Shown here: one piece after another, positions 13,870 to 64,000 of the stretch
Position numbering within the stretch: the stretch's first letter is position 1
Layout: each line of letters starts with the position of its first letter
From: Escherichia coli
Lineage (GTDB): Bacteria; Pseudomonadota; Gammaproteobacteria; Enterobacterales; Enterobacteriaceae
Strand: one strand, 5' to 3'
Assembly: GCF_050920415.1 (NCBI RefSeq)
Contig: NZ_CP169309.1
Length of the DNA: 64,000 nt
Translations under genes and position numbers: made by a program
The notes under the pieces: generated by a model
What the model was told of the DNA's origin: nothing
Database searches by the model: none
The model's input: only the letters and a program-made list of their open reading frames with translations

Positions 13870-13870
13870 A

Positions 13871-14057
<187 letters not shown>

Positions 14058-14085
14058 AAATAACAACTAACAGGGAGTAAAGGCG

Positions 14086-44653: not shown

Positions 44654-44837
44654 GGCCTGTCCTTAACTGTATGAAATTGGGATACAACAGGTAGCATACC
44701 CGCTCAGAGAATATGCGGAAGTAAGGATTTAGCATATCTATATGCAGAAGGGAAATAATGACATGCAAGATGGAATAAGGGGTGGCATAAGCCACCCCTG
44801 TTTCACACAAACGGTTTACAAAATAACCGGTAGATTG

Positions 44838-45599: not shown

Positions 45600-45828
45600 A
45601 ATCAGGATGAGCTCCTTTTGACCAATCCCAGGAAAATTCTGCGTATTTTACCGGGTAATTGCGCAATGGACAGTTAGGATATGTTCGAAAAAACAGCAAA
45701 AAGCACGATTTCATCTATCTTTGTGCTGTGAAAGTTAATAGTGCACTTGCACTTGAGGTAATCGGCAAATACTCTTAGTGAGTAAATGTTTGCCGTGGTG
45801 GCAAGGTGTTAGAACAACAGAGAATATA

Positions 45829-46827
45829 ATGATGCAGGATTTGCGTCTGATATTAATCATTGTTGGCGCGATCGCCATAATCGCTTTACTGGTACATGGT
45901 TTCTGGACCAGCCGTAAAGAACGATCTTCTATGTTCCGCGATCGGCCATTAAAACGAATGAAGTCAAAACGTGACGACGATTCTTATGACGAGGATGTCG
46001 AAGATGATGAGGGCGTTGGTGAGGTTCGTGTTCACCGCGTGAATCATGCCCCGGCTAACGCCCAGGAGCATGAGGCTGCTCGTCCGTCGCCGCAACACCA
46101 GTACCAACCGCCTTATGCGTCTGCGCAGCCGCGTCAACCGGTCCAGCAGCCGCCTGAAGCGCAGGTACCGCCGCAACATGCTCCGCGTCCAACGCAGCCG
46201 GTGCAGCAACCCGTGCAGCAGCCTGCCTATCAGCCTCAGCCTGAACAGCCGTTGCAGCAGCCAGTTTCGCCACAGGTCGCGTCAGCGCCGCAGCCAGTGC
46301 ATTCAGCACCGCAACCGGCACAACAGGCTTTCCAGCCTGCAGAACCTGTAGCGGCACCACAGCCTGAGCCTGTAGCGGAACCGGCTCCAGTTATGGATAA
46401 ACCGAAGCGCAAAGAAGCGGTGATTATTATGAACGTCGCGGCGCATCACGGTAGCGAGTTAAACGGTGAACTGCTTCTTAACAGCATTCAACAAGCGGGC
46501 TTCATTTTTGGCGATATGAATATTTACCATCGTCATCTTAGCCCGGATGGCAGCGGCCCGGCGTTATTCAGCCTGGCGAATATGGTGAAACCGGGAACCT
46601 TCGATCCTGAAATGAAGGATTTCACTACTCCGGGTGTCACTATCTTTATGCAGGTACCGTCTTACGGTGACGAGCTGCAGAACTTTAAGCTGATGCTGCA
46701 ATCTGCGCAGCATATTGCCGATGAAGTGGGCGGTGTAGTGCTTGACGATCAGCGCCGTATGATGACTCCGCAGAAATTGCGCGAGTACCAGGACATCATC
46801 CGCGAAGTCAAAGACGCCAACGCCTGA
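45829..46827 (+). CDS. zipA: Cell division protein ZipA
   Basis: ORF trimmed to ATG 45829 ([26 protein letters not shown]...), 332 aa; N-terminal TM anchor, charged region, P/Q-rich linker and C-terminal FtsZ-binding domain. Confidence 0.9.
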
Positions 46828-46856
46828 TACACTTAAGGCAAATTAACTCCTCTTCG

Positions 46857-46880
46857 AACCCCCGCTTGTCGGGGGTTTTT
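46857..46880 (+). terminator. Rho-independent terminator between zipA and ligA
   Basis: cccccg-cttgt-cggggg followed by ttttt, 30 bp past the zipA stop. Confidence 0.65.
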
Positions 46881-46888
46881 AGCATTGA

Positions 46889-48913
<2,025 letters not shown>

Positions 48914-48914
48914 G

Positions 48915-49133
48915 ATGGAAAAAGAGCAGCTGATTGAAATAGCCAATACGATAATGCCGTTTGGCAAATACAAAGGGCGTCGATTAATCGACCTGCCGGA
49001 GGAGTATCTTCTGTGGTTTGCCCGCAAAGATGAGTTCCCGGCAGGGAAGCTCGGTGAGCTAATGCAAATCACGCTGCTGATTAAAACCGAGGGGCTGACG
49101 CAACTGGTCCAGCCCCTGAAACGCCCACTTTAA
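48915..49133 (+). CDS. ypeB: Small protein YpeB
   Basis: ORF trimmed to ATG 48915, directly after the ligA stop; 72 aa, MEKEQLIEIANTIMPFGKYKGRRLIDLPEEY... Confidence 0.8.
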   Translation: MEKEQLIEIANTIMPFGKYKGRRLIDLPEEYLLWFARKDEFPAGKLGELMQITLLIKTEGLTQLVQPLKRPL

Positions 49134-50128
49134 GCTTTATCGGCGCTGCTTTCCTGCTGCGCCTGTAACTGTTCGGTCTGGCGTTTGTATCGACGCGCCA
49201 GCACCGCACAGACCATCAATTGGATCTGATGGAAAATCATCAGAGGCAGCACCATCATACCGATCACCGATGTGGGGAACAGAATGTTTGCCATCGGGAT
49301 GCCATTTGCCAGACTCTTTTTCGAACCACAAAAGACGATAGTAATTTCATCTGCCTTATTGAAGCCTAGTCGGCGTGCCATAAAGACGTTAACTACAATC
49401 ACGATAGCCAGAAGAACGCAACTGACCACCACGATAAACAGCAATGATCCCCAGCCAACTTTGTGCCAGATACCGTTAACGACGGCTTCGCTGAATGCCG
49501 TATAAACCACCAACAGAATGGACGTCTGGTCAGTTTTCGCAATCCATTTTTTATTACGCGACACCCAGTCACCAATCCACGGCCGCGAAAGATGCCCCAA
49601 CACAAATGGCAGCAGCAGTTGCAGCATTATCTTACCTACCTGCTCAAGGCTGCCCCCTGCACCGTGAACATTCATCACCAGGCCAACCAGCAACGGTGAA
49701 AGGAAAATCCCCAGTAGGCTGGATGCTGACGCAGAACAAACCGCCGCCGCGACGTTACCGCCCGCCATTGACGTGAAGGCGATTGCAGACTGCACGGTCG
49801 CGGGGAGAATGCACAAGTAGAGAAAACCGGAGTAGAGCATCGGGTCGACATTTACCGGTTTCCACCACGCAAACAGCACGCCCAGAATCGGAAACAGCAC
49901 GAAGGTGCTGCACATTACCCATAAATGCAGTCGCCAATGACCACCGCCTGCAATAATGGCCTCTCGCGATAACTTCGCGCCGTGCATAAAGAACAGCAGA
50001 GCAATGGCTGCGGTAGTCAGATTTTCAAAGAAGGGAACGAAATCGCCCCTGGCCGGAAAGAAAGAGGCCAGCAACACCACCGTGATCAGGGTTAAGGTGA
50101 AAGGATCGAGGATACGAAAAAGTTTCAT
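49130..50128 (-). CDS. yfeH: Putative Na+-dependent transporter of the bile acid:sodium symporter family, YfeH
   Basis: 332 aa polytopic membrane protein. Confidence 0.85.
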   Translation of the reverse strand: MKLFRILDPFTLTLITVVLLASFFPARGDFVPFFENLTTAAIALLFFMHGAKLSREAIIAGGGHWRLHLWVMCSTFVLFPILGVLFAWWKPVNVDPMLYSGFLYLCILPATVQSAIAFTSMAGGNVAAAVCSASASSLLGIFLSPLLVGLVMNVHGAGGSLEQVGKIMLQLLLPFVLGHLSRPWIGDWVSRNKKWIAKTDQTSILLVVYTAFSEAVVNGIWHKVGWGSLLFIVVVSCVLLAIVIVVNVFMARRLGFNKADEITIVFCGSKKSLANGIPMANILFPTSVIGMMVLPLMIFHQIQLMVCAVLARRYKRQTEQLQAQQESSADKA

Positions 50129-50217
50129 AAAGACTCCAGATGATCGATGGTTCTATTGTGCTTCTTCCAGTTTGAGAAATAAAATTGATTTATTGCATCC
50201 ATTCATGAAGAAAACAG

Positions 50218-51144
50218 ATGAATTATTCTTTAAAGCAATTAAAGGTTTTCGTCACAGTAGCGCAGGAGAAAAGTTTTAGTCGTGCAGGAGAGCGTATCGG
50301 CCTGAGCCAGTCGGCAGTGAGTCACAGTGTGAAGGAGCTGGAAAATCATACTGGTGTTCGCCTGCTGGACAGAACCACGCGTGAAGTGGTGCTTACAGAT
50401 GCAGGGCAGCAGTTGGCTTTGCGTCTTGAGCGACTGCTGGATGAACTTAACAGCACGTTGCGCGATACCGGGCGTATGGGGCAACAACTGAGCGGAAAAG
50501 TTCGGGTCGCTGCCAGCCAGACCATTTCCGCGCATCTTATTCCGCAATGCATTGCTGAAAGCCATCGCCGCTATCCAGATATTCAGTTTATCCTCCACGA
50601 TCGTCCGCAGCAGTGGGTGATGGAAAGTATTCGCCAGGGAGATGTCGATTTTGGCATCGTCATCGATCCAGGCCCAGTGGGCGATCTGCAATGTGAAGCG
50701 ATTCTTTCCGAGCCTTTCTTTCTGCTTTGCCATCGCGATAGCGCTTTGGCCGTGGAAGATTATGTACCCTGGCAGGCATTACAGGGAGCGAAATTGGTGT
50801 TGCAGGATTACGCGTCAGGCAGCCGACCGCTGATTGACGCAGCGCTGGCGCGCAATGGTATTCAGGCGAATATTGTGCAGGAGATTGGTCATCCGGCGAC
50901 GCTGTTCCCGATGGTAGCCGCAGGCATCGGCATCAGTATTCTTCCCGCACTGGCGCTACCATTGCCTGAAGGTAGCCCGCTGGTGGTAAAGCGCATTACG
51001 CCGGTGGTTGAACGCCAGTTGATGCTGGTGCGCAGGAAGAACCGTTCACTTTCCACCGCCGCTGAAGCGTTATGGGACGTAGTACGAGACCAGGGCAATG
51101 CGCTAATGGCTGGGCGGGAAGGGGATCCGTTGTATCAGATATAG
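50218..51144 (+). CDS. yfeR: LysR-family transcriptional regulator YfeR
   Basis: 308 aa; N-terminal LysR HTH ([23 protein letters not shown]). Confidence 0.88.
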
Positions 51145-51154
51145 AGTGAATTCA

Positions 51155-51177
51155 TACTGCCGGGAGCTCCGGCAGTA
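51155..51177. other. Perfect 9-bp stem hairpin between convergent yfeR and yfeN (possible terminator lacking a T-run)
   Basis: tactgccgg-gagct-ccggcagta. Confidence 0.4.
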
Positions 51178-51182
51178 ATCAA

Positions 51183-51947
51183 TCAGAAATTAAATTTGAT
51201 GGAGTAGATTATCGCATCCTGGTAAAAATCTTCGCCCAGTTTGTCATCCGCATAACGATACTGAATCCCTGTGGTGATGTGTGAAGTTGCATTCCACCAA
51301 AGTGCGACGGCACCATTCAGACCTTCTTTGCCGCCATTACCTGCCGCGTAGGTGGCATCACGATCAAACTCGTACTCGTTCCAGTTGGTGAGGGTGAATT
51401 TCTCACTGCCCAGCATAAAGCTGTAACCTGCAACCCAACCGGCGACATAACCGTTATCGCCGGTATAATAGGTTTGGTCTGTATAGCGTTTTGCAAAGAA
51501 CGGTTTGAACCACCAACCGCTGCCGGTGAAATTGTAGCCGATCCCGTAAAGGAACATATCGTCATGGAAATTCACACGATTCGCAGAACCGTAGGTGCCA
51601 TACGCATGCAAGTAGAGATTAAATCCGGTGTCACCCAGGTAAATACGGTTGGTATTTTTAAATGTATAACGCTGCTCGCTACCCTGTTTATCATGACGAT
51701 CATTATAAAAGTTTTCCCAGTCGAAGAACCCGTACATTTCTCCCCAACTAAAGTTAGCGCCGCCTTCCAGTTCCAGATATCCAAAATCATCTTTGTGTGA
51801 TTTGGTCGACGATTTCTCAGTGGTTCTGCTAGTCCAGTCAAGATAATGAATACCTATATCAGCAAAACCGCCTTTAAATTCTGCATGGGATACTGCTGGT
51901 ATCGCCAATACAGAAGAGAGTGTCAGAGTAAAAAGATGTTTTTTCAT
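51183..51947 (-). CDS. yfeN: Putative outer-membrane beta-barrel protein YfeN
   Basis: 254 aa; signal peptide; aromatic-rich alternating pattern and C-terminal F typical of OM beta-barrels. Confidence 0.85.
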   Translation of the reverse strand: MKKHLFTLTLSSVLAIPAVSHAEFKGGFADIGIHYLDWTSRTTEKSSTKSHKDDFGYLELEGGANFSWGEMYGFFDWENFYNDRHDKQGSEQRYTFKNTNRIYLGDTGFNLYLHAYGTYGSANRVNFHDDMFLYGIGYNFTGSGWWFKPFFAKRYTDQTYYTGDNGYVAGWVAGYSFMLGSEKFTLTNWNEYEFDRDATYAAGNGGKEGLNGAVALWWNATSHITTGIQYRYADDKLGEDFYQDAIIYSIKFNF

Positions 51948-52195
51948 AGCATAATTCCCTATGCCGATCGTTATTAGTTGATTGCTTAATAAAAAGGTTG
52001 ATTAAAAGCGGCATATTGTTAATGCAAGGGAAAGGAGAGTACCAATACAGTTTTTTCAGCCTATTAATAGTGAAAAAATATAAATATATCGATATCGAAT
52101 AACTATCGGATACATGAAAAAAGTGTATTGGTATGAGGTAGGGCAATCTCGTTATAAAAAGGCGTTAGATTCCACCCTACAAAAAAAGGATATAT

Positions 52196-53029
52196 ATGTA
52201 TCAGGCTCAGTTTTCTCATAACCCACTGTATTGCGTAGATATTATCAAGACTTATAAACCTGATTTCACGCCACGAGTGGCCTTTATTTTAGGTTCCGGG
52301 CTGGGCGCGCTGGCCGATCAGATTGAGAACGCGGTCGCAATTTCCTACGAAAAGCTGCCTGGGTTCCCGGTAAGTACCGTACACGGTCATGCGGGTGAGC
52401 TGGTGCTGGGTTATCTCCAGGGGGTGCCAGTGGCGTGCATGAAAGGTCGCGGACATTTCTACGAAGGTCGTGGGATGACCATCATGACGGATGCAATCCG
52501 TACCTTTAAGTTGCTGGGCTGCGAGTTGCTGTTCTGCACCAATGCGGCTGGCTCACTGCGTCCTGAAGTGGGGGCCGGCAGTCTGGTCGCATTGAAAGAT
52601 CACATCAACACCATGCCGGGAACGCCGATGGTGGGTCTTAATGATGAACGTTTTGGTGAGCGCTTCTTCTCGCTGGCGAATGCCTACGATGCGGAATACC
52701 GCGCACTGTTACAAAAAGTGGCGAAAGAAGAGGGGGTCCCTCTGACGGAGGGCGTGTTCGTCTCGTATCCGGGGCCGAATTTCGAGACTGCGGCGGAAAT
52801 TCGCATGATGCAAATTATTGGTGGGGATGTTGTTGGTATGTCTGTGGTGCCTGAGGTTATTTCAGCTCGCCATTGCGAACTTAAAGTCGTTGCGGTCTCT
52901 GCGATTACCAACATGGCGGAAGGTCTGAGTGACGTGAAGCTTTCTCATGCCCAAACGCTGGCAGCAGCGGAACTCTCAAAGCAAAACTTTATTAATCTTA
53001 TTTGCGGCTTTCTGCGCAAAATTGCCTGA
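52196..53029 (+). CDS. xapA: Purine nucleoside phosphorylase II (xanthosine phosphorylase)
   Basis: 277 aa PNP-family protein. Confidence 0.92.
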   Translation: MYQAQFSHNPLYCVDIIKTYKPDFTPRVAFILGSGLGALADQIENAVAISYEKLPGFPVSTVHGHAGELVLGYLQGVPVACMKGRGHFYEGRGMTIMTDAIRTFKLLGCELLFCTNAAGSLRPEVGAGSLVALKDHINTMPGTPMVGLNDERFGERFFSLANAYDAEYRALLQKVAKEEGVPLTEGVFVSYPGPNFETAAEIRMMQIIGGDVVGMSVVPEVISARHCELKVVAVSAITNMAEGLSDVKLSHAQTLAAAELSKQNFINLICGFLRKIA

Positions 53030-53089
53030 GTAAAACAACAATAAACGGCCTCACTGAGTGAGGCCATATGATGCGACAAGGAAACGATT

Positions 53090-54346
53090 ATGAGCATCGC
53101 TTTGCGCTTAAAGGTAATGTCCTTTTTGCAATATTTTATCTGGGGGAGCTGGCTGGTTACCCTCGGTTCTTACATGATTAATACCCTTCATTTCACCGGC
53201 GCTAATGTTGGCATGGTTTACAGTTCCAAAGGGATCGCCGCGATTATTATGCCTGGTATAATGGGGATCATCGCAGACAAATGGCTGCGTGCAGAACGTG
53301 CATACATGCTGTGTCACCTGGTGTGTGCAGGCGTACTTTTTTATGCGGCATCCGTAACTGATCCGGATATGATGTTTTGGGTGATGTTAGTCAATGCGAT
53401 GGCGTTTATGCCGACTATTGCGTTATCGAACAGCGTCTCTTATTCCTGTCTTGCCCAGGCAGGGCTTGACCCGGTGACCGCTTTCCCGCCCATTCGCGTT
53501 TTTGGTACGGTGGGGTTCATTGTCGCCATGTGGGCAGTAAGCCTGCTGCATCTGGAATTGAGTAGTCTGCAACTGTATATCGCGTCCGGTGCGTCATTGC
53601 TGCTGTCGGCTTATGCGCTGACTTTGCCGAAGATTCCGGTTGCGGAGAAAAAAGCGACTACATCGCTTGCCAGCAAGCTGGGTCTGGATGCCTTCGTGCT
53701 GTTTAAAAATCCACGCATGGCTATCTTTTTCCTCTTCGCCATGATGCTGGGTGCGGTGCTGCAAATTACCAACGTTTTTGGCAACCCGTTCCTGCATGAT
53801 TTCGCCCGTAATCCTGAGTTTGCTGATAGCTTCGTGGTGAAATATCCGTCCATTTTACTGTCAGTTTCACAGATGGCTGAAGTCGGTTTCATTCTGACGA
53901 TACCGTTCTTTTTGAAGCGTTTCGGTATTAAAACCGTCATGCTGATGAGTATGGTGGCGTGGACGCTGCGCTTTGGCTTCTTTGCCTATGGCGATCCATC
54001 ACCAACCGGGTTTATTTTGCTGTTGCTGTCGATGATTGTTTACGGTTGTGCATTCGATTTCTTCAATATTTCTGGTTCGGTCTTTGTCGAACAGGAAGTT
54101 GATTCCAGCATTCGTGCCAGCGCCCAGGGCCTTTTTATGACGATGGTAAATGGCGTCGGCGCATGGGTTGGCTCGATTCTGAGCGGTATGGCAGTGGATT
54201 ACTTCTCGGTGGATGGCGTAAAAGATTGGCATACCATTTGGCTGATGTTTGCAGGGTATGCTCTTTTCCTCGCAGTGATATTTTTCTTTGGGTTTAAATA
54301 TAACCATGACCCTGAAAAGATAACGCATCGTTCAGTTACACATTAA
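53090..54346 (+). CDS. xapB: Xanthosine permease (nucleoside:H+ symporter family)
   Basis: 418 aa 12-TM transporter. Confidence 0.92.
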   Translation: MSIALRLKVMSFLQYFIWGSWLVTLGSYMINTLHFTGANVGMVYSSKGIAAIIMPGIMGIIADKWLRAERAYMLCHLVCAGVLFYAASVTDPDMMFWVMLVNAMAFMPTIALSNSVSYSCLAQAGLDPVTAFPPIRVFGTVGFIVAMWAVSLLHLELSSLQLYIASGASLLLSAYALTLPKIPVAEKKATTSLASKLGLDAFVLFKNPRMAIFFLFAMMLGAVLQITNVFGNPFLHDFARNPEFADSFVVKYPSILLSVSQMAEVGFILTIPFFLKRFGIKTVMLMSMVAWTLRFGFFAYGDPSPTGFILLLLSMIVYGCAFDFFNISGSVFVEQEVDSSIRASAQGLFMTMVNGVGAWVGSILSGMAVDYFSVDGVKDWHTIWLMFAGYALFLAVIFFFGFKYNHDPEKITHRSVTH

Positions 54347-54597
54347 AAGGATTCGCAGCTCTGTTCCTTGGGGCTGCTTTCATGATAAAGGTTAATTAGT
54401 GAAAGATATTTTATTTTCTTCTGGCGTTGGTTTTGGCATTGGTGCTTTGTTTACAATCGTGCGATTACCTATTCCTGTTCCAAATGTATTGCCGGGTATA
54501 TTATCCATCGTGTTTATGTATGTCGGATATCTGGTGGTGAAATACTTTATGCCATGATAATTTAATACGATGTATTTTTTATATGGAGCACTTAATT

Positions 54598-55482
54598 ATG
54601 GAACGCATATATAGAACAGATCTTAAGTTGCTCCGTTATTTTCTTGCCGTAGCGGAAGAGTTGCATTTTGGTCGCGCAGCAGCGCGTTTAAATATGTCTC
54701 AGCCTCCGCTCAGTATTCATATTAAAGAGCTGGAAAATCAACTCGGCACGCAGCTTTTTATTCGCCATTCGCGCAGCGTCGTACTGACACACGCGGGCAA
54801 AATCTTGATGGAAGAATCGCGTCGATTGCTGGTGAATGCAAATAATATATTGGCTCGGGTTGAACAAATAGGTCGGGGAGAAGCAGGGCGGATTGAACTC
54901 GGGGTTGTGGGAACGGCAATGTGGGGACGGATGCGCCCGGTTATGCGGCGATTCCTTAGAGAAAATCCTAACGTTGAAGTTCTGTTTCGCGAAAAGATGC
55001 CCGCGATGCAAATGGCCTTGCTGGAACGCCGCGAACTTGATGCCGGGATCTGGCGAATGGCGACAGAACCACCGACTGGTTTTACCAGCTTACGGTTGCA
55101 TGAATCGGCGTTTCTGGTGGCGATGCCTGAAGAGCATCATCTCTCATCATTTTCCACCGTCCCGCTGGAAGCGCTACGTGACGAGTATTTCGTTACAATG
55201 CCGCCCGTGTACACTGACTGGGATTTTTTGCAGCGAGTTTGCCAGCAGGTGGGATTTTCACCGGTTGTTATTCGCGAAGTTAATGAACCGCAAACGGTAC
55301 TCGCCATGGTCAGTATGGGTATTGGTATCACATTGATAGCGGACAGCTACGCGCAGATGAACTGGCCCGGTGTCATATTCCGTCCGCTCAAAGAACGCAT
55401 CCCGGCAGACTTATATATTGTTTATGAAACGCAGCAGGTGACGCCCGCGCTGGTTAAACTGCTGGCGGCGTTGGCGCAGTAG
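54598..55482 (+). CDS. xapR: LysR-family activator of the xap operon, XapR
   Basis: ORF 54583..55482; start taken at ATG 54598 (MERIYRTDLKLLRYF...), 294 aa; the 54583 ATG is an alternative. Confidence 0.88.
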   Translation: MERIYRTDLKLLRYFLAVAEELHFGRAAARLNMSQPPLSIHIKELENQLGTQLFIRHSRSVVLTHAGKILMEESRRLLVNANNILARVEQIGRGEAGRIELGVVGTAMWGRMRPVMRRFLRENPNVEVLFREKMPAMQMALLERRELDAGIWRMATEPPTGFTSLRLHESAFLVAMPEEHHLSSFSTVPLEALRDEYFVTMPPVYTDWDFLQRVCQQVGFSPVVIREVNEPQTVLAMVSMGIGITLIADSYAQMNWPGVIFRPLKERIPADLYIVYETQQVTPALVKLLAALAQ

Positions 55483-55500
55483 ATGAGAGGCACGGGAACT

Positions 55501-55540
55501 GCCGGACATAGTTGGTCTGATAAGCGAAGCGCATCAGGCA
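55501..55540. repeat. REP element downstream of xapR
   Basis: gccggacatagttggtctgataagcgaagcgcatcaggc. Confidence 0.6.
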
Positions 55541-55552
55541 ATTTCGCAAATT

Positions 55553-55607
55553 GCAGATAGTAAAAAAGCGCCTTTAGGGCGCTTTTTTACATTGGTGGGT
55601 CGTGCAG
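55553..55607 (-). repeat. Direct repeat copy 1: tRNA-Lys 3'-end fragment plus terminator hairpin
   Basis: gcagatagtaaaaaagcgcctttagggcgcttttttacattggtgggtcgtgcag; on the minus strand this reads CTGCACGACCCACCA (tRNA 3' end) followed by an A-run/gcgcc/ggcgc/T-run terminator. Confidence 0.7.
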
Positions 55608-55674
55608 GATGACTCGCTTCGCTCGCCCTTCGGGCCGTCGCCGCGAGCGGCTCCGTTGTTTCGCTGCGCTCAAC

Positions 55675-55698
55675 TCGAACCTGCTGCAGGTTCGAATC
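55675..55698. other. Palindrome built from head-to-head tRNA T-arm fragments
   Basis: tcgaacctgc-tgcaggttcgaatc; GGTTCGAATC is the conserved tRNA T-arm, present in both orientations. Confidence 0.55.
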
Positions 55699-55708
55699 TT
55701 TGAGTATC

Positions 55709-55763
55709 GCAGATAGCAAAAAAGCGCCTTTAGGGCGCTTTTTTACATTGGTGGGTCGTGCAG
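55709..55763 (-). repeat. Direct repeat copy 2: tRNA-Lys 3'-end fragment plus terminator hairpin
   Basis: 55-bp copy with one mismatch to copy 1, 156 bp downstream of it. Confidence 0.7.
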
Positions 55764-55927
55764 AATCCTTATTCAGACTCTAACCTTTTGAAAAATCAAG
55801 AGATATAACACTAACAACCATCACTGTGGGCCTAATTATAGGCCCATTTTTGAAAGCTGCAAGTAAGAATTGATTTTGGTGATTTAAGTGCACAATTTTC
55901 AGGCAGCGCGGGAGTTGCAGCGGCATA

Positions 55928-56227
55928 TCAGGAGATCATTAACCCGGATTCACCTTCCACGATCACACCACCATGTTCGGTGGTATCTCCCATACGGGCA
56001 ACGGCTTTACCGTTAATTTTGAGAACCGTTGAACCGGAAACAATAGTGTCTTTGCTACCGCTACCTTTGCAGGTGAGCTTATCACCCACCAACGCCAGCG
56101 GAACACCATTATACGTAACAAAGGTCTGCTGACATTCACTGACCGGGCCACCAATATGTGGGCGGGGGCCGGGATCAACTTTCGGGCAGGTATGGTTATG
56201 TCCTTTGAGTACCACGGCTTTACTCAT
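55928..56227 (-). CDS. PAAR-domain protein (putative T6SS spike-sharpening protein)
   Basis: ORF 55928..56317 trimmed to ATG 56227, which overlaps the upstream stop as ATGA; 99 aa, MSKAVVLKGHNHTCP...LKINGKAVARMGDTTEHGGVIVEGESGLMIS with a PAAR-like KAVAR motif. Confidence 0.7.
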   Translation of the reverse strand: MSKAVVLKGHNHTCPKVDPGPRPHIGGPVSECQQTFVTYNGVPLALVGDKLTCKGSGSKDTIVSGSTVLKINGKAVARMGDTTEHGGVIVEGESGLMIS

Positions 56228-56982
56228 CGTCTGTTCTCCTGCGCAGTTTTTGTGAATATGTCCAGAAGTCGCCAGTAAGCATACTCCTGTTGTCCCAGAT
56301 TCAGGCAACCATACCACCGTGGATGCAGAGGATCATCAAAACAACGAAATCCGTCATAATATTGGGCTACTGCCAGTAGCACTTCGGCCTGTCCGCCGGA
56401 TTCATAGCGGGATAGCGCCCGCCTTGCACTAGCCATCAGTTGTCGGTATATATTTTCATATAGCTCAACTGTTGGCGAAAAAGCCGTTCTTTTTTCCACC
56501 GTATACAGGCGGGTGAAAATCTGACCACTCCCCAGCCAGGCATTGTGATATTGGGGGATAATGCAGTGAGGCGTATCCGGCCCCCAGGAATGTTTATAGT
56601 GTTCACTAAGCCAGTCAACAGACCAGTCATCTTTATGTGCTATCAGGTATGCAGGTATAGTCTCATCTTGCGGGGATGTCTTTGCACTAATGTAGTGTTC
56701 AACAATTTTCTGCAATTCCGTATAGCGGACATCCTCCATAAAAAACGATCCCAGGCACAATCTGGCACTGGCAATATGTATAGCAAGCAATTGATCAGGA
56801 ACTTTTTGAGTCTCAGTCCATTGATAGCTCTGTCTGATTAATTCATCAATAGCGGATGCGGGAAGCTTTCTGTCGGTAATAACCTTACCAAAGCGGTTTA
56901 CCAGCCAGACGCGGCCCTTTTTCAGAAATTCCATCATCCGGTGCTCCGCCAGACTACGGTAAGTTGCTTCTGTTATCCTCAT
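56224..56982 (-). CDS. Hypothetical protein, paralog of the 309-aa upstream gene; candidate T6SS immunity protein
   Basis: 252 aa; shares FMEDVRYTELQKIVEHYISA and LLAIHIASA motifs with FVKEALYTQNEVLLKEWLTA and IVLAIEMLAS of the neighbour. Confidence 0.45.
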   Translation of the reverse strand: MRITEATYRSLAEHRMMEFLKKGRVWLVNRFGKVITDRKLPASAIDELIRQSYQWTETQKVPDQLLAIHIASARLCLGSFFMEDVRYTELQKIVEHYISAKTSPQDETIPAYLIAHKDDWSVDWLSEHYKHSWGPDTPHCIIPQYHNAWLGSGQIFTRLYTVEKRTAFSPTVELYENIYRQLMASARRALSRYESGGQAEVLLAVAQYYDGFRCFDDPLHPRWYGCLNLGQQEYAYWRLLDIFTKTAQENRR

Positions 56983-57014
56983 GACTTCAGCCTCTCCCTT
57001 ACGCTATTGCAACA

Positions 57015-57944
57015 TTATTTAAAAAGCGTTTTTGTAAAAGCCAATTCCGGGTTAATGGCGATCAGTTTATCCAGCAATGGATAAAACCACTCCGGGGCAT
57101 TCCAGCGGCTGAAATCGGGGCGATGATCAATTGCCAGCGGTGTTTTTAACAGCGGATGATCGATTTCTGGGGTGGAAAGACCATGCTCTGCCCGAAAATT
57201 TTTTACTGCCTGATATTCAAACGGCCAGAGCAGCAATTCTCGGTCTTCAATTTCATAACCATTTCTGGCATATTCGTCTTCAGTTGTTTCGGTACGTGCC
57301 GACCATTTAAGATGGTTATCGCAAAGTGCTGTCAGCCACTCCTTCAGCAAGACTTCATTCTGTGTGTAGAGCGCTTCTTTTACAAACTGGGTATAAAAAC
57401 GATCAGAGGGGATACCAAATGTCTCCCAGTTGATAGTTTGTTTCTGTTCGCTGGCAAGCATTTCAATTGCCAGCACAATCATTTTTTGCGGTTTAAGCTT
57501 TTTAGCTTTTGCTACGTCAAAGTTTTTCAAACCTTGGGTGAAATAAGGATAATAAAGACGGGCGATATCAAGACGATGCGTTGCCATAAATGATAGGAGT
57601 GGAATTCCTTTCTTATAGAAAAAACCATCTAAGAAACCTGTGGTTTTAGAATATTGAATGGCTTCACAAAACAAATTCATGGATTTACATGCAACATAAT
57701 CACATATTAACGAGTTATCCTCTTTGTTTTTGTAAAATAAATACCACGCATATAGATAACAAAAGGATGAAGCTGCATCATAGAATATATATTGTGAATC
57801 AGATATTTCCTCGCCATTCGAATTGCCCACTTCTAATAAAGCATCAGAAATATCCTCATTGGAAATGTTTATATATCTGTTAACATCCATGTTAAAGGAA
57901 CTTTCATTAACAAAATAAGAATGAATTTCATTGTATCTTTTCAA
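57015..57944 (-). CDS. Hypothetical protein, paralog of the 252-aa downstream gene; candidate T6SS immunity protein
   Basis: 309 aa; AT-rich N-terminal third; C-terminal region homologous to the 252-aa ORF. Confidence 0.45.
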   Translation of the reverse strand: MKRYNEIHSYFVNESSFNMDVNRYINISNEDISDALLEVGNSNGEEISDSQYIFYDAASSFCYLYAWYLFYKNKEDNSLICDYVACKSMNLFCEAIQYSKTTGFLDGFFYKKGIPLLSFMATHRLDIARLYYPYFTQGLKNFDVAKAKKLKPQKMIVLAIEMLASEQKQTINWETFGIPSDRFYTQFVKEALYTQNEVLLKEWLTALCDNHLKWSARTETTEDEYARNGYEIEDRELLLWPFEYQAVKNFRAEHGLSTPEIDHPLLKTPLAIDHRPDFSRWNAPEWFYPLLDKLIAINPELAFTKTLFK

Positions 57945-57946
57945 TT

Positions 57947-58972
57947 TTAATTTCCTTCTTTTTGAGGAAGACTACTGTGAAAAGGAATATCCGTTTTAAA
58001 TTTATCTTTGACTATTTTTGCATCACCAAACCACAAGGAAATAGATGACATTCCCTCTGGGCAAGCTATGTTTTCAATTAATTTATATTCTTCGTTTATA
58101 CCTTGACCAATAACAAGTCCTATAACGCCCATTTCACCATTAGGTTTATTTTGATCTCGAAGTGCTTTTAGCAATTTTTTTACATTTCTTCGTTTTTCAT
58201 CATCCATCACATAACCACCTGGATTTTCTTTATTCATTTTTAACGCATTTTCAATTCTCTCTATAGCATAGTCAATGGCTCCCTCCTGTTTCTCTGATAA
58301 AATACCTTCATACTGCGTAAAATCACCTGCATCGTCACCATGACATGCCTTTGTTTTTACTTCACAGATCAGCCAAAAATCATCCGGCGGCGGTGAAGGG
58401 TTTTTTACTTTAGCAACAAGATCAAGGCCGTTTTTGGTTTTGACGTGCTGAACCGACATCACCGAACCTTCTACTACGCTGAAGTTAACGGTAGCCGTTG
58501 CCTGTTTAGCCTCCTTATTATAGATATGAAATTGTGCATTTCCCTGTTTCATCTTCCTGGCGAGAAGCACCTCGCCAACATCACCAGTAAACTGATTGAT
58601 TTTCAAAGAAAATAAGCTATCAAAAATCTTATTTTTAATCAAAAAATTAGCAACCTCAGTTGCGCTCATGCCAATTTCTGTATCGCCATTAACCTTTACG
58701 CGAAATGTTGCGTGTGTTGTACTGCCAGGCTCAAGCTCTGACTCAATACGTACAATTGCTTCCGTTGCATCTTTATTACCGGAACCTGACGCATGTGTTA
58801 TCCCTACAGTAATCCTGGTCGGGCCGGCTTGTTCTTCAAAAGTGGCAAAGGCCGTATTGGCTCTGAGGACTTCAGCCTCGGCTTCTTTTACTCTTTTCGC
58901 ATCATTAATCGCACGCCGGTTTACCTGCGTAACATTTACTGCATCTTCGATAGCCCCTGTACCTTTTCCCAT
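57947..58972 (-). CDS. Hypothetical protein with a possible PD-(D/E)xK nuclease motif; candidate T6SS toxin domain or immunity protein
   Basis: 341 aa; start overlaps the upstream stop as TAATG; literal PDDFWLICEVK matches the P-D...(D/E)-x-K pattern. Confidence 0.4.
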   Translation of the reverse strand: MGKGTGAIEDAVNVTQVNRRAINDAKRVKEAEAEVLRANTAFATFEEQAGPTRITVGITHASGSGNKDATEAIVRIESELEPGSTTHATFRVKVNGDTEIGMSATEVANFLIKNKIFDSLFSLKINQFTGDVGEVLLARKMKQGNAQFHIYNKEAKQATATVNFSVVEGSVMSVQHVKTKNGLDLVAKVKNPSPPPDDFWLICEVKTKACHGDDAGDFTQYEGILSEKQEGAIDYAIERIENALKMNKENPGGYVMDDEKRRNVKKLLKALRDQNKPNGEMGVIGLVIGQGINEEYKLIENIACPEGMSSISLWFGDAKIVKDKFKTDIPFHSSLPQKEGN

Positions 58973-60306
58973 TATTTTTCCACTCCCTGGTCTTCATTCT
59001 CAATCTTCATTGAGGAAACCTCTACTTCATTTACCAGTGCAACCTTACTGCCAAGGTAAGCGCCGCCACCACTGGTAACTAATGCTGAAGCAAATTTATA
59101 TTGTGGTTTTTTACCAAATACCATCAGGGTATTTATTGCATGAAAGGCCACTTCAATATTATGTCCCCCACCTGATTTTTTATCCAGATAGCGGGAAAAC
59201 TCAAGCAGTGGATTATATCCATCGGCTTTTGAACCAAGCCACCGATTACGCAGTTTATCCGCTACCTCAATACCATGATTGACATCCACAACAAGCATAG
59301 CAATACGAAGAACCTTCATTGAACCTTTTAAAAAAATAGTCCCGGAAACAATAGCAGCAATCGTCAGAAGTGCATCAGCGACCTCTAAAATAACATCCCT
59401 TACAACATCAAGAGACCGGTTCTCATCAGCCTGATTAAGAACGGCACGGATAAATTCTTCCGCCAGATCAGAGGGGGATTTATGTAATGGGCCGGCCAGT
59501 CTTTCAGGACGACTTCCTGCACTATTTGTCGCCAGCTCACCATATATCAGCGATACATCAAGTGTTTCATATGGACGGTATTTCAGTTGCTCATCGGTTA
59601 ACACATCCCGGTATTCAGCAGGAAGACCTATCGGAACTTCTGCATCTCTGTAGATATAAATATCCGGCGCAACCTCAACAACAAAATCATCTCCCCAGAA
59701 TGTACTGCCATGAGTTCTGGCATGTTCCACTTTATAATTATTACTGTAATAAGGGATAATATTTGCACCAACCTCATGGTATCTTAATTTAAATTTAGCA
59801 TCTTCCAGTTGAACGGTTTCTCCTTTATATTTAACAGCAAACCCGTTGCCGTCTGGGCTTTCCCTGGCCTGTTCGTCAAAAAGCAGTGCAAAATTGAGAA
59901 ATGCTTCATCCCCAAGTTGTTTTCTGACGGCATCAAAAAACGCATCCATTGCCACAATTTCTTTTGCTGTTTCAATAGCATTTCTTTCCGCATCCGTTAA
60001 ATCTGGCGAGTCCTGTATTGTTGCATAACGGGTGATTTCATTATTCAGACTACGGAGTGGAATACCTCGCTGTAAATGTACCTGTGAGGTCTTCTTATCC
60101 ACTGGCTCAAAGAAAGATCCCATGAAACTGGCTGTATTCTTATAAAAGTCTTCTATCGCCTGCTGTCCCTCAGCCGTTGAGCTGTCAAACTCCACAAAAG
60201 CGCCAAATGGTTTCAGCGGGCATGTTGCTGTTGCGCTTTTTGCATCACACGGTATTGCGTCAGAAGGAATGCTTCCCGTTGCCGCTCCGTCAGTATCATC
60301 CATCAC
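58972..60306 (-). CDS. Hypothetical protein; candidate T6SS cargo effector partnered with the DUF4123 adaptor
   Basis: 444 aa; sits directly downstream of the DUF4123 gene, the canonical effector position; hydrophobic segment ALLTIAAIVSGTIFL; no GxSxG lipase motif. Confidence 0.45.
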   Translation of the reverse strand: MMDDTDGAATGSIPSDAIPCDAKSATATCPLKPFGAFVEFDSSTAEGQQAIEDFYKNTASFMGSFFEPVDKKTSQVHLQRGIPLRSLNNEITRYATIQDSPDLTDAERNAIETAKEIVAMDAFFDAVRKQLGDEAFLNFALLFDEQARESPDGNGFAVKYKGETVQLEDAKFKLRYHEVGANIIPYYSNNYKVEHARTHGSTFWGDDFVVEVAPDIYIYRDAEVPIGLPAEYRDVLTDEQLKYRPYETLDVSLIYGELATNSAGSRPERLAGPLHKSPSDLAEEFIRAVLNQADENRSLDVVRDVILEVADALLTIAAIVSGTIFLKGSMKVLRIAMLVVDVNHGIEVADKLRNRWLGSKADGYNPLLEFSRYLDKKSGGGHNIEVAFHAINTLMVFGKKPQYKFASALVTSGGGAYLGSKVALVNEVEVSSMKIENEDQGVEK

Positions 60307-60322
60307 TTACACTCCTTTTTTG

Positions 60323-60898
60323 CTATATAAAGACCAGACTATTTTTTTCTTTTGGGTTTTCACAAATAATATTTGTCAGTCCGGTGGTAAATTCTGCAAA
60401 ATCGTCCGCAGGTAAAAAAGGAATAAAATCCCGCACTGTTTCAGGCGCATAATACCGGAACATGACCCACATTTTATTTACCTCATCATAAAGCTGATTA
60501 AATTTTCGCAGATGATGAGTCAGTTCATTCAGGGAAAGATAGCTGCGGATAAAAATACCCCAGCCATTACCCCGGCTGCTTCTTATCAGCCATTCCGTAA
60601 ATGGCTTATCTTTTTCCAGCCGGACGATATAAGGCGCATAAAGAGAAAACTGTTCTCCCAGTTCACCTTTCCATAAGCATGACCATTCCGTCTCATACGC
60701 ATCAAGTAAAACGGCAATATCCGGTTTTTTTAATGCATCAATGATGGCATAAGTGTGGCAGTCAGTTATTTTACTGGCAGATATCACTGATATATCATCA
60801 GATGCTGTTTTTTCCGGCATACTGAAAAGAAAGCCTGTCAGCGCATCCTGGTATAATTGTGTATCTTCCGGCACATCAATAATTTTCAGTCGGCTCAT
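60323..60898 (-). CDS. DUF4123-family T6SS effector adaptor/chaperone (Tap/Tec-like)
   Basis: 191 aa; YAIIDA, YAPYIV, HLRKF and RYYAPETVRDF motifs match my recollection of the DUF4123 signature; ATGA overlap with the vgrG stop. Confidence 0.75.
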   Translation of the reverse strand: MSRLKIIDVPEDTQLYQDALTGFLFSMPEKTASDDISVISASKITDCHTYAIIDALKKPDIAVLLDAYETEWSCLWKGELGEQFSLYAPYIVRLEKDKPFTEWLIRSSRGNGWGIFIRSYLSLNELTHHLRKFNQLYDEVNKMWVMFRYYAPETVRDFIPFLPADDFAEFTTGLTNIICENPKEKNSLVFI

Positions 60899-62967
60899 TT
60901 TTTCCCGTCCTCTTCTTCGGCCTGTTTTGCTTTCGCACAGATTTCGCAGAACGGTTTGCCCTCATTCACCATCGCCGTCAGTGCTTCCACCTGATCCACG
61001 CCGCCGCCCCGGATATCCATTGCTGGCGTCAGGATCTGAAGTTTTTTTGCCTTTATCGTAACGCCACCACCATCAATGGTCAGACTGCCGCCAGGCCCGG
61101 CGATCACCAGTCGCTCTCCGGCGTGCATAATGTATTTATTGGTCTGCGAAAAAATCTTCGTATTTACCGTTTCATCCTTCACGCCCTGGATCACCACCGT
61201 TTTATTGCCGCCAATATCGTCCAGGGAATCAGCAAATATTTTCTTTCTTTCCGAACTGTTCACCACCAGCGTCCGGTTTCTGTCCACTTCGATTTCCTGA
61301 TCCTGAACCACCCGGACAACGGAGTTCCTGCCGATGGTTTCATAGTGATCCCGGCCCACATCTGTTTTCTTGTCCTGACCAATGGTTTCCTGCTGGTCAA
61401 CGCCCACGCTTTTGGCGCGGTTATTACCGATGGTATGGCTTTCATCGTGCAGAATTTCCGTCACATGGTCTTTCTGCGCGTGCATATAGACCTGTTCCCG
61501 GTTTGTGGCGTCTTCAAAACGCAGTTCATTAAAACCCTCGCCCCGGTAGGTCTGCGTGCGGATAGTGGTCTGCGTTTTCGTTTCCGGTAAATCCCCCGGC
61601 GAGCGATTTTTCTCATGGTAGGTGCGCCCCATGATGATCGGCTGGTCAGGATCACCGTTTAAAAAATCGACAATCACCTCCTGACCCACACGCGGAATGG
61701 CAAGATGACCAAATCCCGTCCCGGCCCATGGCTGTGATACTCTGATCCAGCAGGAACTGTTCTCATCCTGTTTGTGATAACGATCCCACAAAAATTTCAC
61801 CCGCACCCGGCCATGCTCGTCGCAGAAGATTTCCTCACCTTCCGGCCCGGTGACGACCGCTGGTTGTGGGCCATCCACTTTCGGCTTAGGCTGCGGCGTG
61901 GGACGCCAGGTTTTATCCGCTGGTATGGCCTGAAACGTATTCACCAGCGTGGTTCCCTGGCCCCGGCTTCCGGGAACGGCCTGCGGCTGCTCGCCGTGCA
62001 GTTCGCTGGCGATCACCTGCCATTCCCGGTTCAGATCGTCAGCCGGATGATCGGTCAGCGTAAAGCGCGTACCGGGCCACAGTTTTGGCGAGTTGCTGCA
62101 TCCCCTGGCGATCTCCGCATCATTGCGCCAGCCTTCCATCTGGTAACGGGTAAAATCTCTGCCATGCTGTTCGTCCTTAAAACGCCCCGGATAGTCCATC
62201 ACCTCATACTGGTTGCGCTGGCCGTTAAGACTGGCGGCATTATGGCGAAAACGCCCCGGCCAGTCAGGGTATTTGAAGGTGTAGTCTTTGCTGATGACAT
62301 ACGCCGGGCGTATCTGCGCACTGTGGCGGAACTGGCTGATATACTCCGTTTCCGTGGCGCGGGGTTCCGGGTTAAACGGAAGGGGGAAGGCTTCCGGCAG
62401 GTAGTAAACTTTATCGCAGAACACCAGCGGCTGATCCTTCCCTTCACGGGCGTGCTCTTCGTAAAAAAATATCCCTTCTTCCGCCAGCAGGCGGCAGAGA
62501 AAACCAAAATCAGTTTCACCGTACTGCACGCAGAACTCCCGCGCCGGATGAGGCTCGCCCAGCAGATAAGCCGTCTGCATCACCCGGTTGTCATCCAGCA
62601 GGTGCTTAATAATGGACTGAATATCCTGCTGCTGAAAATGGCGAAAATTTTCCCGCAGGCTGCTGCGCCAGAAAGGAGGATGCACCCGCAGGTAGTAGTT
62701 CATTTTATGACCGTCATATTCCCCGCGCTCAATCCTGGCTACCAGCCCGGTGATATGGCGCTGTGCGGTATTGTTTTGCCACAGGGTAAGCGTGGCATTC
62801 AGTTCCAGCAGTTCCGTAGATTTAAGGTGGATAGTGTCGCTGATGAGATGAAGATCGAGGGTGAATAATGCGGAGTAATGCTGGGTAAGATGAAAGTTTA
62901 CGACGGCAAAGGTTTCTGTATCAAAATCGCCGATATCAACGGTAAAACGGGTTCCTGTCCGGGGCAT
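60895..62967 (-). CDS. vgrG: Type VI secretion system spike protein VgrG
   Basis: 690 aa; gp27/gp5-like body, e.g. CDEHGRVRVKFLWDRYHKQDENSSCWIRVSQPWAG and repetitive beta-helix region; short C-terminal tail EGKPFCEICAKAKQAEEEDGKK. Confidence 0.9.
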   Translation of the reverse strand: MPRTGTRFTVDIGDFDTETFAVVNFHLTQHYSALFTLDLHLISDTIHLKSTELLELNATLTLWQNNTAQRHITGLVARIERGEYDGHKMNYYLRVHPPFWRSSLRENFRHFQQQDIQSIIKHLLDDNRVMQTAYLLGEPHPAREFCVQYGETDFGFLCRLLAEEGIFFYEEHAREGKDQPLVFCDKVYYLPEAFPLPFNPEPRATETEYISQFRHSAQIRPAYVISKDYTFKYPDWPGRFRHNAASLNGQRNQYEVMDYPGRFKDEQHGRDFTRYQMEGWRNDAEIARGCSNSPKLWPGTRFTLTDHPADDLNREWQVIASELHGEQPQAVPGSRGQGTTLVNTFQAIPADKTWRPTPQPKPKVDGPQPAVVTGPEGEEIFCDEHGRVRVKFLWDRYHKQDENSSCWIRVSQPWAGTGFGHLAIPRVGQEVIVDFLNGDPDQPIIMGRTYHEKNRSPGDLPETKTQTTIRTQTYRGEGFNELRFEDATNREQVYMHAQKDHVTEILHDESHTIGNNRAKSVGVDQQETIGQDKKTDVGRDHYETIGRNSVVRVVQDQEIEVDRNRTLVVNSSERKKIFADSLDDIGGNKTVVIQGVKDETVNTKIFSQTNKYIMHAGERLVIAGPGGSLTIDGGGVTIKAKKLQILTPAMDIRGGGVDQVEALTAMVNEGKPFCEICAKAKQAEEEDGKK

Positions 62968-63406
62968 AACGTTTCCTTAGCAATAATACGGCTCAGAGAT
63001 AACGAAATCATTCATGAGCAATATGAATTATGATTAATAATTCGTAAAAGGAATGTATTTTATAATGACTCTTCCTGTTTTTAGTCAAAGTTGTCATTAT
63101 AATTAATATTATACTAATTAATTTCCAGAAAACTTCTGTAACCAGTAAAAACACTGCTCCGACAACCTAACATAATGTAAATTAACACTATTAACTGGAA
63201 ATTATCATCTTTAAGTTTACATAAATTCCGTGATGCATATCGCAAAGCGGTGATAAATATATATCCTGTGAAAATGAACTTTGCACCTCCACAGAATATG
63301 TTAACGTAATATCATATGGTAGCAGAAGGCTATTAATTAATTATCCGTATTATAAATCTTGTCTGACGCCTTTCTGTTTCTGCTGTATTACGGGAAGGAT
63401 TACCTA
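62968..63406. promoter_or_regulatory. AT-rich divergent control region between vgrG and tssF
   Basis: 439 bp, visibly AT-rich (runs such as ttataattaatattatactaattaattt); no ORF; flanked by divergent starts. Confidence 0.5.
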
Positions 63407-64000
63407 TGGCAATGAACGAACGTTTTTACCGGGAAGAACTGGATTATCTTCGTCAGTATGGCGCGCTGCTGGCGCAGGAATATCCCGCCCTGAAATCTTT
63501 CCTGGGCAGTAAAAACGCTGATCCGAACGTGGAACGCCTGCTGGAAGGGTTCGCGTTTCTCTCCGGCAGACTGCGGGAAAAAATCGAGGATGAGTTTCCC
63601 GAAATCACCGTTCCGCTGATTAACCGTCAGTGGCCCAATTATTTGCGCCCCGTTCCGCCGATGACCGTTATCGAATACACGCCGGACAGCTGCAGGCTTA
63701 CCGCTCCCCTGACCGTTTCACGCGGTGAGCAGGTGATGAATCCGGGGCAGGACAGCCAGCCGGAAAACAGCCGCCCCGGTGATGAATCAGGGGCTACCGG
63801 GGGGCCACCTTCCTGTATCTTCACTTTGTGCCGTGATATCCGCCTCCTGCCGTTGTGCATTGAAACAATACAGAGTCGCAGCAGCCCGCAATCCAGTACC
63901 CTTGATCTCATTTTCACCGTGACGGGAAAAGGCCGGATCGCCACCGCCGATCTGAATCAGATCAGTTTCTGGCTGGGCGATGCGGACGAACGCAGCCGCA
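63407..64000 (+). CDS. tssF: Type VI secretion baseplate protein TssF (ImpG/VasA family), N-terminal 198 aa; continues beyond the window
   Basis: Open frame from ATG 63407 to the window end with no stop (absent from the ORF track for that reason); MAMNERFYREELDYLRQYGALLAQEYPALKSFLGSKNADPNVERLLEGFAFLSGRL... matches the TssF N-terminal signature. Confidence 0.75.

Follow-up and report, generated by a model that had tools for sequence, protein, structure and literature searches.

A gene that is cut off by the end of a sequenced stretch raises the question of what kind of locus it begins. The stretch considered here (the window) comprises 64,000 nucleotides of the Escherichia coli chromosome (assembly GCF_050920415.1, contig NZ_CP169309.1), and its right edge falls within tssF, which encodes a type VI secretion system (T6SS) baseplate wedge subunit and is divergent to a vgrG spike gene with its cargo. 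The initial annotation took this tssF to be the start of a complete secretion locus. As shown by comparison with other genomes, the predicted tssF is intact and is the first gene of a two-gene tssF–tssG unit divergent to vgrG, within a ~16-kb integrase-bearing island at the tRNA-Lys gene lysV that harbors no other core genes. The explanation favored here, encompassing both this structure and a mechanism in trans, is that of a mobile spike with a matching wedge kit that would use a resident T6SS; taken as a whole, it is judged probable, with ample room for doubt.

The tssF gene and the locus around it

An ATG at 63406–63408, located 6 nt after a GGAAGGA Shine-Dalgarno sequence, opens a stop-free frame of 198 codons (63406–63999) that reaches the window end and includes all of the peptides quoted in the initial annotation (FYREELDYLRQYG, DPNVERLLEGFAFLSGRL, and NYLRPVPPMTVIEY). 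The TssF-type frame running off the window without a stop, as described there, is real; however, it starts at 63406 and not at 63407, from which the frame is wrong and the translation is full of stops. The fragment matches the Pfam family T6SS_TssF (PF05947; E = 6.3e-40, 137.7 bits with a cut-off of 25, profile positions 7–196 of 608) and the TssF family TIGR03359 (E = 5e-47), a match that for this predicted protein is far beyond chance. It spans the helical stem at the N-terminus and the beginning of the central β-barrel domain; alignment to TssF of enteroaggregative E. coli (EAEC; 6GIY/6N38), together with Park et al. 2018 (PMC6300606), provided the domain limits.

Beyond position 64,000, the locus was read in genomes identical or nearly identical to the window. 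Among 5,426 complete E. coli genomes, only NZ_CP169399.1 (RefSeq; strain MFDS1022581, its locus denoted L001) matches window positions 62900–64000 at 100% identity. The tssF annotated there encodes 615 amino acids (WP_001251214.1) without a stop or frameshift, with a predicted end at ~65253 in window-equivalent coordinates. The full-length protein scores 363 bits against PF05947 (profile positions 7–607) and 448 bits against TIGR03359 (cut-off 260.3). Its residues 5–608 align by sequence, end to end, with the solved EAEC TssF (6GIY/6N38; E = 1e-55), covering the three-domain layout of an N-terminal helix, central β-barrels, and a C-terminal domain. An early stop or frameshift past the window edge, or best homologues other than TssF, had been named as the findings that would overturn the gene call; the gene is intact in the identical-sequence genome, and both the fragment and the full-length protein match TssF profiles. 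The call itself is ordinary, and RefSeq already names both TssF and TssG.

In the identical-sequence genomes, tssG (354 aa) directly follows tssF with a 37-nt overlap, and its product scores 312 bits against TIGR03347 (cut-off 143). After tssG, MFDS1022581 carries genes for a 153-aa hypothetical protein, a Ner-like HTH_35 protein, an integrase-like protein (PF12834/PF12835), and a P4-type integrase, followed by tRNA-Lys, three tRNA-Val genes, and gltX. The identical 615-aa TssF occurs in 135 blocks of the assembly collection and was counted on 90 contigs. All 24 of the contigs that were read have the same order, i.e., PAAR–cargo–DUF4123–VgrG, the divergent TssF, TssG, small genes, two integrases, and lysV. 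In an E. coli background without xapABR, lysV again carries this island, with an unchanged gene order and a TssF variant of 96% identity. Extension and annotation, the check that the initial annotation had proposed, thus recover tssG but no tssK, tssB, tssC, tssM, hcp, or other core genes. The full secretion locus anticipated beyond 64 kb is not supported; tssG is followed by non-T6SS genes, integrases, and lysV in all identical-sequence genomes and contigs that were read.

In addition, 16 core proteins from the T6SS of the carrier itself and seven proteins of the O157:H7 cluster served as tblastn queries against the island. Apart from vgrG, tssF, tssG, and a weak match to PAAR, these queries detect nothing there, with no trace of hcp, tssB, tssC, tssE, tagH, tssJ, tssK, tssL, tssH, vasI, tssA, or tssM, and the annotation agrees that, of the 13-gene tssA–M set, only vgrG (tssI), tssF, and tssG, plus PAAR, are present at this locus. 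Six related islands likewise yielded no further core T6SS gene in tblastn searches with host core proteins. The complete T6SS of MFDS1022581 is located 2.6 Mb from the island, beside yafV, with hcp and three vgrG genes and, divergently, tssB, C, E, F, G, tagH, tssJ, K, L, H, vasI, tssA, tssM, and vasL; none of its core genes is flagged as a pseudogene.

The initial annotation had assigned the cargo operon to the neighborhood of a core T6SS cluster and not to an orphan vgrG island, and this placement is not supported. As in orphan vgrG islands, vgrG, an adaptor, an effector cassette, and PAAR occur away from the main cluster (2.6 Mb); however, the gene content goes beyond the secreted components and accessory proteins of such islands, as tssF and tssG are present and intact. 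Since no other core gene is present and the full T6SS of the carrier is 2.6 Mb away, the locus is, by its predicted gene content, an orphan vgrG island integrated at a tRNA gene, and the presence of tssF–tssG is its only unusual feature.

The island extends over ~16 kb, from window position 55767 to ~71725 (window-equivalent), with its left half within the window, in a chromosomal region harboring cysK, ptsHI, ligA, yfeH, yfeR, yfeN, and xapABR. Island-free E. coli genomes (5,400+) share homology with the window up to 55763–55766, and the island is present in one of the 5,426 complete genomes. A 19-bp tRNA-Lys direct repeat is found at both ends, the far copy being the intact lysV, ~16 kb off and outside the window. 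The island-free strain N96, whose flank is 99.7% identical, has lysV exactly at the island start, with gltX next, and thus represents the empty site. Genomic islands integrated at tRNA genes are marked by an integrase beside the tRNA, a direct repeat of its 3′ end on the opposite side, and a related strain in which the site is empty, all of which are found here; judged by its sequence, the island is inserted in the 3′ end of tRNA-Lys lysV.

Related islands and the spike–wedge unit

Homologues of the island TssF split into 15 protein clusters at 56–96% identity to the query and all others at ≤51%, the latter including the common TssF of E. coli, Salmonella, and Citrobacter. One branch parts the two groups in 30 of 30 neighbor-joining bootstraps. 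Identity is 55–82% within the clade and ~50% to the TssF of full clusters. Relatives at ≤50% TssF identity reside in complete clusters, in which hcp is divergent to tssB, C, E, F, G, tagH, tssJ, K, L, and H. In all nine other lineages examined, cargo and VgrG are divergent to TssF(–TssG), with no other core gene within reach, and at least six distinct chromosomal sites harbor this minimal architecture.

The second E. coli variant carries the same module as the query island, at lysV. Salmonella enterica subsp. houtenae harbors Rhs cargo and tssF–tssG at amn/tRNA-Asn, while subsp. salamae and a further assembly share a site at nadA/tRNA-Lys/pal, both with tssF–tssG. A Hadza gut metagenome encodes Rhs cargo and tssF–tssG at a flanking site that was not identified, and two further sequencing runs have tssF–tssG on short contigs. 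The gene tssF alone is found in Enterobacter sp., with no tRNA or integrase nearby, and in run SRR1749239, between lolE and mfd. The clade is thus found in E. coli, Salmonella subspecies salamae and houtenae, Enterobacter, and gut isolates. In tblastn searches of plasmids, the listed matches are all canonical-type TssF at ≤49% identity, with one unlisted record in the 60–80% band; viral contigs of IMG/VR gave no match.

The salamae-type mini-island (L009 and L019, ~13100–14800) adjoins a multi-copy tRNA-Lys(UUU)/tRNA-Val array between nadA and pal. Its target is the same tRNA species as lysV at another chromosomal locus, and an integrase fragment is present only in L009, with none in L019. Where tssF occurs alone, in Enterobacter sp. 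(L011, 10001–11860) and another enterobacterial assembly (L014, 10001–11857), no tssG or remnant of it, integrase, or tRNA is found nearby.

None of the compared tssF, tssG, and vgrG genes is truncated or interrupted by a stop. Between the two E. coli island variants, the ratio of nonsynonymous to synonymous substitution rates (dN/dS) is 0.138 for tssF, 0.115 for tssG, and 0.065 for vgrG (dS 0.09–0.13; 0.12–0.13 for tssF and tssG). Less saturated between-species pairs give 0.13–0.15 for tssF and 0.07 for tssG (dS 0.75–0.82). The values for tssF and tssG are similar to those of the neighboring integrase and of core genes. Lying at 0.07–0.15, they indicate that tssF and tssG are probably under purifying selection and are not relics.

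The wedge core of EAEC consists of two TssF and one TssG, in which loops 1 and 2 of TssG dock two TssK trimers via six hydrophobic residues (PMC6300606). VgrG is touched by the proximal TssF protomers and has been proposed to nucleate hexamerization of the wedge (PMC6300606). The island TssG aligns with the solved EAEC TssG (E = 7e-28), and the eight island TssG proteins that were aligned harbor a hydrophobic residue at all six TssK-docking positions. Loop 2 of the island TssG (GMRLGD..LGRTSFIG) differs very little from its counterpart in the resident TssG of the carrier, yet the island has no tssK.

Across seven islands, the pairwise identity of the gp27-like head of VgrG (residues 1–370) tracks that of TssF (r = 0.96), whereas the β-helix (r = 0.13) and the C-terminus (r = −0.07) do not. 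The latter two group by cargo type (e.g., Rhs-linked VgrGs resemble the O157:H7 VgrG). The head of the island VgrG is 54–59% identical to the resident and O157:H7 full-cluster heads and 69–90% identical to other island heads. Because head identity tracks TssF, the C-terminus does not, and the cargo genes are less conserved than vgrG between the two E. coli variants, the VgrG head and TssF (with TssG) appear to form a stable unit behind which the cargo end is swapped.

In the proposed mechanism, an island (TssF)2–TssG heterotrimer would assemble around the island's own VgrG, the gp27-like head of which is of a different type from those of the resident VgrGs. TssK, TssE, the membrane complex (TssJLM), the tube (Hcp), the sheath (TssBC), and ClpV would be supplied in trans by a complete T6SS elsewhere, and the resident machine would then fire the horizontally acquired spike and toxins. 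The VgrG head, TssF, and TssG would travel together, with the VgrG C-terminus and the downstream cargo being exchanged by recombination. Support for the putative baseplate role of the island TssF, i.e., binding of TssG, TssK, TssE, and VgrG, is indirect and comes from purifying selection and the conserved docking loops of TssG. More tentatively, and with somewhat more doubt than confidence, the clade may represent a family of mobile "spike plus wedge" kits in Enterobacteriaceae, in which a VgrG with a distinct head and its own TssF (usually with TssG) form hybrid baseplates with the resident TssK, TssE, membrane complex, and sheath. If this is true, wedge subunits, so far seen as fixed core parts, would be specificity modules that can be exchanged, move by horizontal transfer, and determine the spikes that a machine can fire.

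Several points weigh against this proposal. Function in trans with a resident T6SS is something we infer from sequence, and one genome, MFDS1022581, was checked for the joint presence of the island and a full T6SS. The correlation between the VgrG head and TssF could come from physical linkage alone, without co-adaptation. The oligonucleotide/oligosaccharide-binding (OB) fold of VgrG, which contacts TssF in the published model, is 77–86% identical between island and host and exhibits no island-specific divergence. The central, VgrG-facing domain of TssF was considered as a co-adaptation signal and rejected; it is the most divergent domain everywhere, full clusters included, and because its divergence is equally high between full clusters, it is not specific evidence. 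Two lineages keep tssF without tssG, and in two S. houtenae assemblies tssG is either split into two open reading frames (L005, 11824–12881) or not called (L006); therefore, the tssF–tssG pair is not indispensable everywhere. Two other S. houtenae assemblies (L007 and L008) have an intact tssG, and the damage is taken as a sign of lineage-specific erosion. Genomic context was read for nine clusters of the near group, the other six of the 15 being on short contigs. The window ends at position 64,000, and the sequence described to its right is that of identical or near-identical genomes. MFDS1022581, the complete genome among them, is a very closely related but different strain, since the IS2 element carried by L001 is missing from the window.

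Three other explanations have been weighed. That tssF opens a complete T6SS core cluster past the window, with the vgrG cargo operon as part of the main locus, is invited by a genuine, intact tssF divergent to vgrG, a polarity shared with full enterobacterial clusters (e.g., Rhs, VgrG, and Hcp divergent to tssB, C, E, F, and G in O157:H7), and by a window that stops before a direct readout. This is nevertheless scarcely credible, given that all genomes and contigs read with an identical or 96%-identical TssF continue with tssF–tssG, non-T6SS genes, integrases, and lysV, that tblastn finds no remnants of other core genes, and that the full T6SS of the carrier lies far away on the chromosome. 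In addition, tssE, tssB, tssC, and hcp, which lie upstream of tssF in full clusters, are missing from the 438-bp gap between vgrG and tssF. A further possibility, very improbable in our estimate, is interference or regulation, whereby the island TssF–TssG would compete with or modulate the resident wedge and bias or damp resident firing to the benefit of the island. The ~50–55% identity to host TssF and TssG, together with the conserved TssK-docking loops, makes mixed or poisoned complexes conceivable, and the two lineages with tssF alone would fit. However, the constant linkage to vgrG with cargo, PAAR, and an adaptor points to delivery, and no precedent was found in the literature searched.

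The remaining alternative, unlikely although it has more to recommend it, is a decaying relic, i.e., an island left from a once complete T6SS cluster after deletions, with tssF–tssG functionless and not yet inactivated. Because the polarity and the 37-nt tssF/tssG overlap are shared with full clusters, an origin from such a cluster by loss of hcp–tssBCE and of all genes after tssG is plausible. The lineages in which tssG is missing, split, or uncalled would also be expected of a relic. In contrast, tssF is intact and full-length in 10 of 10 lineages despite divergence down to 55% amino acid identity, dN/dS is low at unsaturated dS and resembles that of the neighboring integrase and core genes, and the TssK-binding loops of TssG are conserved. 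The same reduced architecture at six or more chromosomal sites argues that the reduction is old and that the module has since been maintained and moved. The mobile spike with its matching wedge kit is the explanation preferred here.

Cargo genes and other features

The features of the island that lie within the window are collected in Table 1. The four cargo proteins (443, 341, 309, and 252/237 aa) have no sequence match in Pfam, NCBIfam, or the PDB. Between the two E. coli island variants, amino acid identity is 86% for the 443-aa, 78% for the 341-aa, and 73% for the 309-aa protein (dS 0.37–0.69), whereas vgrG, DUF4123, and PAAR are 98–99.5% identical (vgrG, 98.8%). This difference between the cargo and its flanking genes suggests that the genes at 57015–60303 are a polymorphic effector/immunity cassette, probably swapped by recombination.

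Table 1. Features at the left boundary and in the left half of the island, in window coordinates.
Feature	Coordinates	Strand	Evidence and remarks
Left island boundary	55748..55766	.	18/19 copy of the tRNA-Lys 3′ end (TTGGTGGGTCGTGCAGAAT); repeat search and sequence
PAAR-domain gene, 99 aa as annotated	55928..56227	-	PF05488, E = 1e-20; longest open reading frame reaches 56317, GTG start
Hypothetical cargo gene, 252-aa open reading frame	56224..56982	-	No family match; RefSeq: 237 aa, to 56937
309-aa hypothetical cargo gene	57015..57944	-	No family match
341-aa hypothetical cargo gene	57947..58972	-	No family match
443-aa hypothetical, candidate effector	58972..60303	-	Candidate because it follows the DUF4123 adaptor gene; nothing matched in Pfam, NCBIfam, or the PDB
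DUF4123 (Tap/Tec-type) adaptor gene	60323..60898	-	PF13503, E = 1e-20; weak Tla1 match
vgrG, spike, 690 aa	60895..62967	-	Phage_GPD, Phage_base_V, and Gp5_trimer_C domains; TIGR03361, E = 4e-180; divergent to tssF
Intergenic region vgrG/tssF	62968..63405	.	438 bp, AT-rich, divergent; presumably holds both promoters
tssF, 5′ third (198 codons)	63406..64000	+	Open frame; PF05947; TIGR03359; identity to RefSeq tssF WP_001251214.1

A consensus scan of the region between vgrG and tssF found two promoter-like sites, no more than in shuffled sequences. No conserved regulatory motif was found in this region among 10 islands, for which the mean column identity is 47%.

Next to the left boundary, window positions 55592–55766 harbor two copies of the tRNA-Lys 3′ end (TTGGTGGGTCGTGCAG[G/A]AT), which flank a ~126-nt element annotated as "RtT sRNA" by RefSeq. 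The first copy and the RtT-like element occur in island-free strains as well, and the second copy is the island junction.

In the right half of the island, at L001 23718–24430, the gene for the 153-aa protein, which has no family match, overlaps the next gene, which encodes the 84-aa Ner-like HTH_35 protein. The 153-aa gene is also found in S. houtenae loci, 7–8 kb downstream of tssG, and has the highest dN/dS of the island (0.55). An HTH_3-type gene takes the place of the HTH_35 gene in the second E. coli variant. In the E. coli and S. houtenae islands (L001, 25321–26205; L007, 14059–14931; L025, 15071–15955), tssF–tssG is followed by a second tyrosine-recombinase-like gene (PF12834 and PF12835, "Integrase_1"), distinct from the P4-type integrase gene at the tRNA; its two E. 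coli versions are only 87% identical.

Identity between the window and L001 is 99.985% across 13.8 kb, and over positions 44236–64000 the window differs from MFDS1022581 by two substitutions and one IS2 insertion. The IS2 element is located between yfeH and yfeR in MFDS1022581 (L001, 6012–7240), and the corresponding part of the window (~50129–50217) is without it. In the resident T6SS cluster of MFDS1022581 (L024, 14376–18734), one of the three vgrG genes is broken by an IS21 element; downstream of it are a Tle1-like phospholipase gene, three DUF3304 genes, and a group II intron.

Comparison with known systems

Orphan or auxiliary vgrG islands are exemplified by the Aux clusters of Vibrio cholerae. 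Like the lysV island, orphan vgrG islands exchange polymorphic cargo behind a conserved 5′ part of vgrG, and their dependence on a resident T6SS is presumed. The E. coli vgrG islands with VT effectors likewise reside away from the main T6SS and encode VgrG, a DUF4123 adaptor, an effector/immunity cassette, and PAAR (PMC6730261). Known E. coli orphan islands harbor only secreted parts (Hcp, VgrG, and PAAR), adaptors, and toxins (PMC6730261). A 2026 survey of chromosomes and plasmids defined orphan islands by hcp, vgrG, and PAAR and labelled clusters with other core genes as incomplete. In contrast to orphan vgrG islands, the lysV island adds two genes for non-secreted baseplate wedge proteins, tssF and tssG, which form their own clade.

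In the literature searched, which lacked most subscription journals, no description was found of orphan or extra tssF, or of vgrG islands with tssF/tssG, for E. coli, Salmonella, Klebsiella, Enterobacter, or Pantoea. The "incomplete" cluster of vgrG and tssF(–tssG) appears to be a discrete clade that is under purifying selection, tRNA-targeted, and mobile. If its wedge proteins work with the resident machine, T6SS spike compatibility would be set in part by exchangeable baseplate subunits. This would bear on effector recruitment, on the nucleation of the baseplate by VgrG, and on how "partial" T6SS loci are read in annotation.

The closest complete counterpart considered is the full cluster by yafV/aspV in E. 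coli O157:H7 NE92, MFDS1022581, and Salmonella relatives, with homologous TssF (~50% identity), TssG (~55%), and VgrG (~53%). It has the same divergent polarity of vgrG and tssF–tssG and the same 37-nt tssF/tssG overlap. However, the full cluster harbors hcp, tssB, tssC, and tssE between vgrG and tssF, which the island does not, and it continues after tssG with tagH, tssJ, K, L, H, vasI, tssA, tssM, and vasL, of which the island has neither genes nor remnants.

Relatedness to the EAEC TssK–TssF–TssG wedge (PDB 6N38, 6GIY, and 6GJ1; PMC6300606) is distant, although TssF and TssG are alignable and the six TssK-docking residues are conserved in kind. In EAEC, TssK is encoded alongside TssF and TssG in a complete cluster, whereas the TssK and TssE of the proposed hybrid would come from another locus.

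The island shares with tRNA-integrated islands bearing P4-type integrases an integrase beside a tRNA, a repeat of the tRNA 3′ end, and absence from close strains; its payload alone is unusual. The tRNA-Lys(UUU) target is also used, at another locus, in Salmonella salamae.

A functional parallel is offered by VgrG-specific accessory proteins, i.e., the DUF4123 Tap/Tec adaptors and the Tvp complexes (PMC13373197), which are likewise encoded by extra genes tied to one vgrG paralogue and let a shared T6SS assemble or load that spike. These accessory proteins do not belong to the 13 core components and serve as chaperones or adaptors, whereas the genes linked to vgrG in the lysV island are paralogues of core structural subunits.

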